DNA from: Escherichia coli
GTDB lineage: Bacteria > Pseudomonadota > Gammaproteobacteria > Enterobacterales > Enterobacteriaceae
Length of the DNA stretch: 64,000 nt
NCBI RefSeq assembly: GCF_003019035.1
Contig: NZ_CP027447.1
Direction: 5' to 3' (one strand)
Position numbers and translations under genes: made by a program. Below, in pieces: positions 49,925 to 51,251 of the stretch; position 1 is the stretch's first letter; the number at the start of each line of letters is the position of its first letter. The notes beneath the pieces are model-generated. The model saw nothing but the letters and a program-made list of their open reading frames with translations, ran no database searches and was not told the DNA's origin.

Positions 49925-50375
49925 ACTGCAGAAAGTTGACGACTGGCTGAGTGCCTTGCTGGCGAATCTGGAGCCAGCCGCAAGAAGCCGCATGGTGCGT
50001 CAGCTGGCGCAGGAGCTGCGCCGGACACAGCAGCAGAATATCAGGATGCAACGCAACCCTGACGGCAGCAGTTATGAACCGCGCAAGGTCACAGCGCGCA
50101 GTAAAAAAGGCCGCATCAAACGTCAGATGTTTGCAAAGCTGCGCACCACAAAATACCTGAAAACCGCCGCCAGCGCCGACTCTGCCAACGTACAGTTTGA
50201 AGGCAAGGTGCAGCGCATTGCCCGCGTTCACCATTACGGCCTACGTGATCGCGTCAGCCGCAAAGGACCTGAGATCCGTTACGCAGAGAGAAAATTGCTT
50301 GGATTAAATGGATGTGAAAAATTAATTCGAAAAATATTCATTATGAATTTATTTTCTGGGGATTGGCTGGCATAA
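49917..50375 (+). CDS. Tail completion protein (P2 gpS-like) with an apparently replaced C-terminus
   Basis: 152-aa ORF at the P2 S position; the last ~22 codons (from ~50305) switch abruptly to AT-rich sequence. Confidence 0.7.
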   Translation: MAELQKVDDWLSALLANLEPAARSRMVRQLAQELRRTQQQNIRMQRNPDGSSYEPRKVTARSKKGRIKRQMFAKLRTTKYLKTAASADSANVQFEGKVQRIARVHHYGLRDRVSRKGPEIRYAERKLLGLNGCEKLIRKIFIMNLFSGDWLA

Positions 50376-50397
50376 AAGCCAGCCTTTATTTTTTTAT
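50365..50397 (+). terminator. Rho-independent terminator at the S / cassette junction
   Basis: ggctggc-ataaaa-gccagcc followed by tttatttttttat; the S stop codon lies in the loop. Confidence 0.6.
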
Positions 50398-51251
50398 GTG
50401 ATGGCCCCTATCTTTTGATTGTAATAACTATAATCAGCATGTTCTTCTGTATAAAAAATCTCAAATGCAGACAAGATGTTTGCGTAAAAACTATCCTTGG
50501 ATATAGAGGTTTTTTTATTGATGGATGCCAAAAAGTTTGTTATAAATCTTAATGATGCTGAGAAAAGAAAGTGCCCTTTCACCCAATGATTTATAGATGT
50601 ATTTTCTGGGAATTGAATGTTGTTTTTTTCTGCCAAACCATTAGTAGTAAACGATTCAGGTAGTCTATTGATATATTCATCTATTTTTTTCTTGCATATA
50701 TTGTATGAATTTCTTGATTGCATAAAACGATCACAGGAATCACCAATTACGGAGCATCCTAATTTATTTAAATGATTGTGAATATCTAGTATTATTAAGT
50801 TCTCAATGTTGCTATAGAAGTTAGAAAGCCAATTTCCTACATCTATTTCCTGCATTTTTTTTGTGCAAAAACGGCCTGTGTTTTTGAGTATGTGTGATAT
50901 GATTTTTTCATCAATGATTGTGTTTTCTATTGAATATCCCTTTGTGTAAATAATATTTGTATGCTTTACTATGTTGTCAGAAAAATGGTTTAGATCCGAA
51001 TCTCTGGCAACTATGGCGTTTATTTCTCCTGAGGTTATTTTTTCGATATATGGTTGTAAAGCTTCACATCCACCAACATCTTGAACTTCTACATTAAAAC
51101 GACCATTTTTTTTAAAAATTATTTCCCAAAAAGCAATGTCATCTTCACCTTCAACATAGACCATAATATCAGCATCATAAAATAAACTGATCACATTTTC
51201 CGCTTCATTAGACCAAGAAAAGTTTTCTGCATTAGAATCATTGATTAGCAT
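50394..51251 (-). CDS. DUF4435/TOPRIM-like protein (AriB-like candidate effector)
   Basis: 285-aa ORF overlapping the upstream ATPase gene by 14 nt; conserved acidic motifs MVYVEGEDD and ARDSD consistent with a TOPRIM/OLD-type fold; AT-rich. Confidence 0.7.
   Translation of the reverse strand: MLINDSNAENFSWSNEAENVISLFYDADIMVYVEGEDDIAFWEIIFKKNGRFNVEVQDVGGCEALQPYIEKITSGEINAIVARDSDLNHFSDNIVKHTNIIYTKGYSIENTIIDEKIISHILKNTGRFCTKKMQEIDVGNWLSNFYSNIENLIILDIHNHLNKLGCSVIGDSCDRFMQSRNSYNICKKKIDEYINRLPESFTTNGLAEKNNIQFPENTSINHWVKGHFLFSASLRFITNFLASINKKTSISKDSFYANILSAFEIFYTEEHADYSYYNQKIGAIT

Follow-up and report, generated by a model that had tools for sequence, protein, structure and literature searches.

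Tailed-phage genomes are mosaics with "novel joints", and tail-fibre C-termini and their chaperones form exchangeable cassettes. In P2-like phages, the orf30 (S–V) site counts among the three classic moron regions (Christie and Calendar 2016, as summarised in PMC6823313), and a defence hotspot has been described "within the late genes / downstream of GpL" (10.64898/2026.02.27.708500). The name "TO region", which we considered for the S–V site, is wrong for it and denotes the tin/old, gpA-gpQ locus. The described PARIS loci of P2 and P4 are the P2 gpA-gpQ hotspot and the P4 hotspot. PARIS is an abortive infection system of an ABC ATPase, AriA, and a TOPRIM nuclease, AriB (PMC9122126; PMC11464382; PMC12409363), whose trigger is anti-restriction proteins such as Ocr, not structural proteins (PMC9122126, PMC11464382), and whose anti-phage activity and tRNA cleavage by released AriB have been defined experimentally (PMC9122126, PMC11464382, PMC12409363).

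Here, we analysed a stretch of 64,000 nucleotides of Escherichia coli contig NZ_CP027447.1 (assembly GCF_003019035.1), hereafter the window, in which a P2-like prophage carries a PARIS-like gene pair between S and V, the same position as the orf30 moron site. As at that site, the cargo is AT-rich, turns over rapidly and usually lies on the opposite strand. P2-type phages differ: their gpS keeps 97–100% identity along its full 150 residues irrespective of the moron, which places the P2-type junction downstream of S. In the lineage of the window, by contrast, the variable segment begins within S, and both the S C-terminus and the PV promoter come with the module. In the papers searched, the key reviews not among them, we found no description of such a module-supplied S C-terminus and PV promoter. 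The features of the locus are as follows.

49917..50375, + strand: gene S, chimeric, encoding a P2 gpS-like tail completion/neck protein (152 aa; GTG start overlapping the end of R)
49917..50288, + strand: S body, codons 1–124, phage-backbone DNA (GC 0.57)
50211..50288, + strand: left crossover interval of the latest module exchange, conserved S coding DNA ending at the break in YAE/RKLLG
50289..50375, + strand: module-borne S tail of 28 codons (RKLLGLNGCEKLIRKIFIMNLFSGDWLA) plus stop, delimited by codon comparison (GC 0.26)
50365..50395, + strand: intrinsic-terminator-like hairpin and T-run where the R-S (O-operon) transcript ends, from a stem-loop reading and a context test
50394..51251, − strand: ariB-like gene (285 aa), DUF4435/OLD-like TOPRIM nuclease, by Pfam, PADLOC and phrog matches
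51238..52494, − strand: ariA-like gene (418 aa), ABC/AAA_15 ATPase, by Pfam, PADLOC and PDB matches and motifs
52542..52559, + strand: TGTGTCATTCTCAGTACA, TGT-N12-ACA dyad of an Ogr/Delta-type late activator, predicted module-borne PV late promoter, 47 nt before the V start
52551..52656, + strand: right crossover interval of the latest module exchange
52560..52588, − strand: candidate sigma-70 promoter for ariA-ariB (TTGAAA-17-CATAAT, 10/12), from a consensus scan only
52607..53185, + strand: gene V, baseplate spike, by start homology and a phrog baseplate match

Structure of the chimeric S gene

Gene order (R 49472–49924, S 49917–50375, V 52607–53185) is colinear with Cartapus and P2 and places S last in the R-S late transcription unit, with R before it and V after it, as expected for gpS. 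The product matched PF05069 (Phage_tail_S; 9.4e-38, residues 3–132) and phrog_26 (1.1e-45, residues 1–142), and its C-terminus, ...YAERKLLGLNGCEKLIRKIFIMNLFSGDWLA, is identical to that quoted in the original prediction, which suggested that a cargo cassette had recombined into the 3' end of S. Across 982 E. coli complete genomes with S, the S body showed 90–96% nucleotide identity and nearly all megablast alignments ended at query position 372 (window 50288), continuing into the cassette in two genomes only. Codon-by-codon comparison with empty-site relatives placed the break after ...TAC GCA GAG (Y-A-E), between 50288 and 50289, where composition changes abruptly at a single codon boundary, GC dropping from that of the body to that of the tail and remaining at ~0.31 across the next 2.2 kb. 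Alignments and codon comparison together bear out a recombination junction inside S and a chimeric C-terminus. The frame switch that had been placed near ~50300 is real but lies ~12 nt further upstream, and the C-terminus, foreign as proposed, is longer than the ~20–22 codons first counted, since the 28 codons include the conserved RKLLGLN. The window C-terminus is not conserved in phages that lack the cassette, which end differently (RRLLGVNDDVEAMTRDMILQWLAG).

The breakpoint, YAE/RKLLG, falls within residues 122–129, the most conserved 8-residue block in the whole S family. In the same codon comparison, the AT-rich tail was seen to specify the family-conserved RKLLGLN once more, but with foreign codons. 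The incoming DNA thus carries its own version of a conserved motif, and the joint falls upstream of it.

Probable exchange of the S–V module between phage backbones

The replaceable module spans 50289–52606 (2.3 kb), its right edge falling exactly at the V ATG. Among 90 related loci, about 15 cargo types plus an empty site occupied S–V between flanks 90–99% identical, roughly two-thirds of the loci having an empty 68-nt site with a GC-normal tail, and tail type mapped one-to-one onto cargo type. At least 73 distinct tails sat on S bodies 76–99% identical, and in 35 S homologs the body was 85–98% identical while the tail was <35% identical. S–V is thus a P2-like hotspot in being a small locus with conserved flanks and a high turnover of unrelated cargo, but its boundaries do not lie between the flanking genes: the left edge is at S codon 124/125, and on the right the PV promoter is included, as far as the V ATG. 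The left junction differs between modules, at codon ~114 in Cartapus, 125 in the window, after LLG in a DUF6216 module and in the last 2 codons in RE-2010, as expected from recombination between homologous S ends.

Four copies of the module differed by 3.4–7.5% in the backbone and by 0.3–0.6% within the module (Fisher p 1e-17 to 1e-23); the S tail had 0/87 base differences among them, and the S body differed by 6.7–7.5% from those of the phages hosting the other copies. The last backbone difference to these copies (L005, L092 and L093) was at 50210, with none from 50211 onward; on the right, the last module difference was at 52550 and the first backbone differences in V at 52657–52660. Because the three other copies share one backbone type, exchange was effectively seen between two backbones, and on both of them S, V and the flanking late ORFs were uninterrupted over the compared stretch. 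The S tail was unchanged in E. coli S56, in which the cassette genes are broken. The exact window S allele was found in at least 160 collection blocks, and all 24 contigs checked (24/24) shared its neighbourhood with full-length ariA and ariB. A sister PARIS module had AriA and AriB proteins 63% and 43% identical in amino acid sequence to those of the window, and a tail only about 16% identical.

Conservation and divergence of the S tail

The length of the window tail is typical of the family: 79 of 85 distinct tails ended 17–26 aa after LLG, against ~13% expected from random read-through, and the window tail lies within that range. An AlphaFold model of S (mean pLDDT 90) ended in a helix at residues 132–147 with a pLDDT of about 80–89, though this helix may be inherited from the alignment. 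The window tail was the most atypical among about 85. An ungapped PSSM gave it 5.1 bits (p = 0.001–0.005), a signal that came almost entirely from L1 and N2 and lay far below the minimum of 16.4 bits among all other tails, and a gapped profile HMM of the tail alone, set against nulls in which RKLLG was kept, failed to distinguish it from shuffles (p = 0.17 with the distant set, 0.05 with all), a test of low power in which some natural tails also scored near the null. The Pfam alignment stopped at residue 132, leaving the family C-terminal segment (model positions 134–148; pattern x-x-[DE]-x3-hydrophobic-x-[DE]-x-hydrophobic-hydrophobic-x-[HYW]-L) unaligned, and the near-invariant D11 and W16 were absent in register. 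At 0.27, the helical hydrophobic moment carried no information, shuffles averaging 0.30. By these sequence comparisons, the window tail is not significantly family-like beyond RKLLGLN. A frameshifted canonical tail was excluded on inspection of the sequence by eye, the other reading frames of the tail DNA reaching stops immediately.

Tails at empty sites were conserved between Salmonella, Klebsiella, Yersinia and E. coli, which indicates that the tail is constrained. None of 100,044 species-representative genomes contained the exact window tail pattern, our searches found no donor S gene with the window tail or any cargo-linked tail, and distant-family tails showed no resemblance to cargo-linked tails, identity topping out at 26–42%. 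A Foldseek search for S returned nothing significant; the HK97 gp10-family neck protein 9mu2_P (SaPI1/80alpha neck) shares 9% sequence identity with S, which is 43 residues longer, and the alignment of the two did not place the variable C-terminal helix.

Transcription signals at the module edges

That S ends within a strong hairpin was confirmed: a 7-bp stem with 6 G-C pairs (GGCTGGC/GCCAGCC, 50365–50371/50378–50384) is followed by a T-run out to 50395, the ATAAAA loop holds the S stop TAA (50373–50375), the final S codons (W-L-A) make up the left arm, and the T-run overlaps the stop codon of ariB. A generic terminator scan yielded 2 sites against 1.6 ± 1.1 in shuffles, no excess. A stricter context test, run on 238 windows of equal size within cargo DNA, found comparable sites in only 2, which makes chance an unlikely explanation for a hairpin placed exactly at the S stop. 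With a G+C-rich hairpin, a U-run and a position at the end of a transcription unit, this is a predicted Rho-independent terminator. We reject a terminator as a standard part of each module, since only 2 of 15 cargo types had a convincing one.

The true start of V is ATG 52607 (MNAQLTEIMRLI...), which is homologous in all relatives; the ORF list gives TTG 52541 instead, an artefact of the open frame. Upstream of V, a TGT-N12-ACA dyad was found 46–48 nt from the ATG at the empty site and in 13 of the 15 module types that bear cargo, amid otherwise unalignable DNA and against a chance frequency of ~0.0009 per position, and the P2 annotation has an activator site at the equivalent place. The window dyad has both the motif and the conserved distance of an Ogr/Delta late promoter, and activation is predicted.

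A PARIS-like cargo

We found that the cargo resembles PARIS in its organisation as a two-gene operon of a P2-like phage, with ariA directly upstream of ariB and overlapping it by 14 nt, and in its pairing of an AAA_15/AAA_21 protein with a DUF4435 partner. The ariA product matched AAA_15 (8e-22), AAA_21 (8e-18) and PADLOC AriA (2e-38), with PARIS AriA 8ux9/8v45 as its best PDB match (E 1e-20), and has a Walker A motif (GRNGTGKT) at residue 31 and a Walker B motif (IFLTDE) at 359. Unlike the solved AriA (464 aa), it has 418 aa, and phmmer aligned only the C-terminal ~120 residues. The ariB product matched DUF4435 (1.7e-26), PADLOC AriB (2e-21) and phrog_33182 over its full length, with a weak OLD-like TOPRIM match, but is too diverged from the solved AriB for a direct match: it had no sequence match at E ≤ 0.001 to solved structures, AriB included. 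Because promoter-like sites were not enriched over shuffles, the ariA-ariB promoter is a suggestion. We call the pair PARIS-like on these matches, with putative activity, trigger and tRNA target; its position at S–V differs from those of the described P2 and P4 PARIS loci.

Origin and function of the S tail

We suggest, with a probability of roughly three in four, that the S 3' end is part of a replaceable S–V hotspot module and not collateral damage of an insertion. The variable segment of the Fels-2/Elveevirus-type branch of P2-like phages runs from S codon 125 to the V start codon. The module may thereby supply a substitute 28-residue S C-terminus, which retains RKLLGLN and a length usual for the family and is predicted to end in a helix. 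It would also bring a terminator that ends the R-S transcript and keeps late transcription from entering the cargo antisense, a PARIS-like defence pair, ariA-ariB, read from the opposite strand under a putative promoter of its own, and a late promoter that replaces the one of the V operon and has its activator dyad at the canonical distance. Related phages would swap such modules by recombination, with crossovers in the conserved coding parts of S and V. The first chimeric joint would have formed in YAE/RKLLG, the most conserved S motif, where short homology is present even among diverged S genes. The edges of the module, the link between tail and cargo, the jump in divergence and the retained interface elements are observed; we infer that recombination was guided by homology and that the tail derives from another S gene and did not arise de novo. 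As in novel joints and fibre cassettes, the exchange boundary lies inside a structural gene at a conserved motif, and the C-terminal segment travels with downstream DNA. The swapped fibre C-terminus, however, is a selected function (receptor binding), whereas the S tail appears to be a passenger that need only suit neck assembly.

The original wording, that cassette insertion rewrote the 3' end of S, is not supported in the sense of arbitrary cargo DNA taking its place, as RKLLGLN, length and predicted helix are kept, the tail travels with the cassette and the design recurs with ~15 other cargos. A stronger form of it, in which unrelated AT-rich DNA open for 23 codons overwrote the true C-terminus and left a tail-defective prophage, a vertically inherited PARIS carrier, is improbable. 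It would explain why the tail is the most atypical of its kind and not significantly family-like past RKLLGLN, with the Pfam alignment ending at residue 132 and D11 and W16 missing in register, but not why RKLLGLN is re-encoded in foreign codons, nor the family-typical ORF end (chance about 0.13) and predicted helix. The occurrences of the allele, at least 160, could reflect one clonal host lineage, and the infectious relatives examined all have canonical-type tails; yet the module with this tail sits on two backbones 4–7% apart, with late ORFs uninterrupted over the compared stretch, the other late genes of the window are intact where decay would be expected in a long-dead prophage, and E. 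coli S56 keeps the S tail unchanged despite its broken cassette genes. Somewhat easier to entertain, though still doubtful, is an origin in place, by divergence in situ or de novo from cargo-flanking DNA, with selection only for a generic helix and AT-richness (e.g., H-NS silencing of the cargo). A matching donor S was not found in our searches, in which cargo-linked tails reached only the low identities to distant-family tails given above, and the sister PARIS tail is only about 16% identical to that of the window; the PV promoter region, AT-rich and unalignable between modules while its dyad is kept, shows that conservation of pattern alone occurs here. Such an origin sits poorly with the abrupt composition change at one codon boundary, the conserved residues in foreign codons, junction positions that vary between modules as crossovers between homologous sequences would give, and empty-site tails conserved across four genera, which imply that drift in situ is normally slow.

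The strict one-to-one linkage of tail and cargo, the extreme tail diversity on near-identical bodies and the invariant tail of the P2-type lineage, in which the junction lies outside S, would also suit a functional coupling, in which S C-terminus and cargo co-vary through interaction, for example because defences of rival P2-like phages sense the neck helix and a cassette needs a compatible "self" tail. We consider this very unlikely: physical adjacency alone accounts for the linkage, the cargos are functionally heterogeneous (DUF6216, assorted hypotheticals) with no sign that any senses S, RE-2010 has cargo with an almost canonical tail, and the PARIS trigger is anti-restriction proteins such as Ocr (PMC9122126, PMC11464382). 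It is just as far-fetched that diversifying selection made the C-terminal helix hypervariable and cargo-linked, as a surface recognised by rival phage or satellite defences or exploited by satellites, a matched tail per cassette avoiding self-targeting; if so, S tails would be a record of inter-phage conflict and not passive hitch-hikers.

Under the replaceable-module reading, the chimeric S is likely functional, so that the prophage could build tails. The remaining late genes of the window are of full length, with 88–100% identity to Cartapus. Every examined relative of the lineage with documented infectivity (SopEPhi, Fels-2, MLG42, KP12 and RE-2010) has a GC-normal, canonical-type S tail, and for Cartapus, the only AT-rich-tail phage with particle data, encapsidated DNA but no visible myovirus was reported (PMC9928086). 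We set aside as viability evidence vB_EcoM-813R9, which has the sister module and an AT-rich tail but is an in-silico prophage, and plaque-forming P2-type phages, whose S is invariant to the last residue and so provides no test of tail swapping. The concern over S function is reduced, not removed.

Implications

A cargo module with its own S tail is a routine arrangement in this phage lineage, and one that probably leaves S working. A chimeric S end would then be the normal left edge of a hotspot module and not evidence of a dead phage, and the prophage is best regarded as a potentially inducible element that could pass on its PARIS-like cargo. In Fels-2/Elveevirus-type phages, the S–V exchange unit would include the last ~20–35 codons of an essential neck gene as well as the promoter of the next tail operon, so surveys that delimit cargo by core-gene boundaries would misplace the S junction, and clustering of S proteins would split by cargo and not by phage lineage. 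The C-terminal variants on near-identical bodies, at least 73 in number, form a natural mutagenesis series that could define the requirements of the S C-terminus.

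Junction within gene S

The P2-like prophage of the E. coli window (prophage portion ~33.4–64 kb) was colinear with phage Cartapus (Elveevirus) at 95–96% nucleotide identity, and its chromosomal flank at gsiA was 100% identical to strain SCU-301. The features around the junction are as follows.

49917–50375, plus strand: S, a P2 gpS-like tail-completion gene, 152 aa, overlapping the end of R
50365–50384: hairpin of 7 bp with 6 G–C pairs, then a T-run
50394–51251, minus strand: ariB-like gene for a DUF4435/OLD-like TOPRIM protein, 285 aa (Pfam 1.7e-26; PADLOC AriB 2e-21)
51238–52494, minus strand: gene for an ariA-like ATPase, 418 aa (Pfam AAA_15 8e-22, AAA_21 8e-18; PADLOC AriA 2e-38)
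52542–52559: TGTGTCATTCTCAGTACA, a TGT-N12-ACA dyad 47 nt before the baseplate gene V
52588–52560, minus strand: candidate sigma-70 promoter upstream of ariA

As the original prediction described, the S protein ends in ...YAERKLLGLNGCEKLIRKIFIMNLFSGDWLA after an abrupt loss of GC. The drop is from 0.57 in the body (codons 1–124) to 0.26 in the C-terminal tail and ~0.31 over the next 2.2 kb, and the S stop codon (50373–50375) lies inside the hairpin loop. A megablast search with S covered 5,426 complete E. coli genomes and found the gene in 982; nearly all alignments ended at query position 372 (window 50288), with only two of the 982 running on into the cassette. Codon-level comparison with relatives placed the break after TAC GCA GAG (Y-A-E), so the foreign part of S comprises 28 codons (50289–50372). 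A chimeric S with an in-gene junction therefore stands, with a foreign part slightly longer than the ~20 codons first estimated. Past the break, the window retains the conserved residues R-K-L-L-G-L-N in AT-rich codons (AGA AAA TTG CTT GGA TTA AAT), where relatives with no cargo between S and V (empty sites) read CGC CGC CTG CTG GGT GTA AAT. The joint falls inside residues 122–129 (YAERKLLG); among S-family representatives of no more than 50% mutual identity, no other stretch of eight residues is as well conserved. On the right, similarity restarts exactly at ATG 52607, the first codon of V; TTG 52541, the start in the ORF list, was rejected on this basis.

The left junction varies by module, from about codon 114 in Cartapus and codon 125 in the window to a position after LLG in a DUF6216 module; in RE-2010 it sits at the last two codons. 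In the DUF6216 module (E. coli EC19 and T7Express; locus 4389–4447), the final 59 nt of S are shared with an opposite-strand cargo gene, and the two strands of one DNA encode the S tail and the cargo protein C-terminus; the EC19 copy also carries an IS1 within the module.

Cargo and regulatory sites between S and V

The 418-aa ATPase carries Walker A (GRNGTGKT) and Walker B (IFLTDE) motifs, its closest solved homolog is the PARIS AriA (E 1e-20), and its gene overlaps the ariB-like gene by 14 nt. The 285-aa AriB-like protein had no direct sequence match to solved AriB. Judged by these domain and family matches, the cargo is a diverged PARIS-like pair; PARIS itself is a well-characterised system (PMC9122126, PMC11464382, PMC12409363). 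A sister PARIS-like module occupies the same site in vB_EcoM-813R9 (L099) and three other relatives (L011, L017, L030), so two diverged PARIS lineages reside in the S–V hotspot. Its AriA (419 aa) is 63% identical to the window's and its AriB (293 aa in L011, L017 and L030) 43% identical, and its S tail is canonical in pattern yet AT-rich, RKLLGIHDKEYYQIKDTLFEWLS(K/T).

The dyad TGTGTCATTCTCAGTACA resembles the type bound by the P2 late activator, and in P2 an activator site is annotated at the corresponding position. A terminator after S makes sense in the window, given the antisense orientation of the cargo relative to late transcription. Within 50365–50396, the three final S codons, for W-L-A, make up the left arm of the hairpin, and the T-run shares bases with the stop codon of the convergent ariB. 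The 8-mer TGGCTGGC also terminates empty-site S genes (...QWLAG). Since a ribosome completing S would cover the hairpin, the efficiency of termination could hinge on S translation.

Linkage of tail, cargo and V promoter

Across 90 relatives chosen by S body only (10 annotated, 80 from IMG/VR), roughly two thirds had an empty site, with 68 nt from the S stop to the V ATG and a GC-normal S tail, RRLLGVNDDVEAMTRDMILQWLAG. The remainder held ~15 different cargos, each joined to an S tail of its own that was in most cases AT-rich (GC 0.20–0.35). Inserts that matched by BLAST carried the same tail, point variants aside, and no cargo type among the 90 bore two unrelated tails. Within the 120 top database clusters, bodies 76–99% identical carried no fewer than 73 distinct tails, and 35 homologs combined body identity of 85–98% with tail identity below 35%. 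The S C-terminus in this lineage is thus both hypervariable and cargo-linked.

Two features persisted across this turnover. Tails ended 17–26 residues past LLG in 79 of 85 distinct cases, a range that random read-through into the module's AT-rich DNA would reach ~13% of the time. The TGT-N12-ACA dyad lay 46–48 nt from the V ATG in the empty site and in 13 of 15 cargo-bearing module types, retained within otherwise unalignable DNA (chance frequency ~0.0009 per position). Because tail length and dyad are kept across cargo types, each module restores both phage functions it displaces, namely the C-terminal end of S and the promoter of the V operon. Of 15 cargo types, only 2 follow S directly with a convincing terminator.

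We aligned four copies of the window's module (the window, E. coli S56 and two IMG/VR contigs). The backbone (R, S body, V) of the other three diverged from the window by 3.4–7.5%, and the segment from S tail to V promoter by 0.3–0.6% (Fisher p 1e-17 to 1e-23), the three being of one backbone type, so that exchange is effectively seen between two backbones. The 87-nt tail had zero differences among the four. The last backbone difference on the left is at 50210 and the first on the right at 52657–52660, which delimits an exchanged tract of ~50211–52656. Both crossovers would thus lie inside conserved coding DNA, a signature that points to homologous recombination in the flanks. In the S56 copy (NZ_CP010242.1, 4478–6524) both cassette genes are broken, ariA by a 53-nt deletion and ariB by a 1-nt indel (RefSeq gives two fragments for each), and the terminator and V-promoter site are unaltered.

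Origin of the tail

We favour import of the tail from another S gene, as the abrupt composition change with conserved residues in the foreign codons, the junction positions that vary between modules, and the conservation of empty-site tails across four genera would suggest. A search for the donor S gene of the window tail found none, and the sister PARIS module's tail is only ~16% identical to the window's despite 63% (AriA) and 43% (AriB) identity in its cargo. These two observations keep in play an origin by in-situ divergence or de novo capture, which we consider unlikely beside import.

Function of the chimeric S

Whether S still functions had been questioned; we put the probability that it works at about 70%, by inference rather than demonstration. 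The window tail retains the conserved motif, length and predicted C-terminal helix: AlphaFold (111 sequences) gave S a mean pLDDT of 90, with a helix at 132–147 and values of ~89 for residues 131–140 and ~80 for 141–150. None of the remaining late genes in the window is truncated or interrupted by a stop, and their identity to the Cartapus counterparts is 88–100%. An identical S protein is recorded in at least 160 collection blocks, and in all 24 contigs read from these it had the same surroundings, with ariA and ariB both full length; in S56 the tail is unchanged while the cassette genes are broken.

Other evidence speaks against function or does not support it. Of all the tails seen, the window's is the least typical: on a profile built without gaps from 69 others it scored 5.1 bits, where every one of those reached 16.4 or more. 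This exceeds nulls (p 0.001–0.005), with the signal almost wholly in L-N, and a gapped HMM with RKLLG fixed gave p 0.17 for the distant set and 0.05 for all tails. The Pfam alignment of S ends at residue 132, and the helical hydrophobic moment of the tail, 0.27 against a shuffle mean of 0.30, did not set it apart from chance. Those relatives in the lineage that are documented as infectious or propagated have canonical-type, GC-normal tails throughout: SopEPhi, Fels-2, MLG42 and KP12 are empty sites, and RE-2010 bears cargo with a tail differing only in its last two residues. Cartapus, with an AT-rich tail, produced DNase-protected genomes, but electron microscopy showed no myovirus (PMC9928086), and 813R9, which bears the sister PARIS module, is a prophage identified in silico.

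Relation to known hotspots

The S–V (orf30) site counts among the three classic P2 moron regions (PMC6823313), and a defence hotspot in late genes was noted by a 2026 preprint. All three sites hold cargo in this prophage, as the gpA–portal (tin/old-type) hotspot (39318–42059) and the Z/fun-type site, a second low-GC island (56850–58300, ~0.31) between the tail-fibre assembly and sheath genes, are also occupied.

40274–41956, plus strand: match to PDC-S49, a PADLOC candidate defence family, 560 aa (3.7e-25)
57017–58054, minus strand: membrane acyltransferase-like protein, 345 aa (weak NolL fucose acetyltransferase match, 68 bits against a 425-bit cut-off)

The 345-aa protein had no PADLOC match; it could act as an acetylase of O-antigen or the cell surface, in which case its gene would serve lysogenic conversion. 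Colinearity with Cartapus is broken at 56140–58317 by a host-range swap at the tail-fibre C-terminus and assembly-gene region, where the Cartapus invertase segment is missing, and at 61129–61572 by a ~440-nt variable stretch in the tape-measure gene.

The cassette junction of the original prediction is thus real and its interpretation there holds in part; it is an ordinary, well-behaved mosaic joint at a known hotspot. What differs from the P2 moron hotspot is that the exchanged unit extends into the essential gene S and takes in the next operon's promoter, of which we found no description in searchable papers (the main P2 review is not among them). Peduovirus members (P2, Wphi, L-413C and many Yersinia and E. 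coli isolates) have gpS 97–100% identical over all 150 residues, near-invariant despite differing S–V morons, so Peduovirus and the window lineage set the hotspot boundary differently. P2-type phages, identical to this degree to the last residue whatever the moron, were ruled out as viability evidence for tail swapping. The generalisation of moderate interest is the cargo-linked, hypervariable S C-terminus in this lineage.
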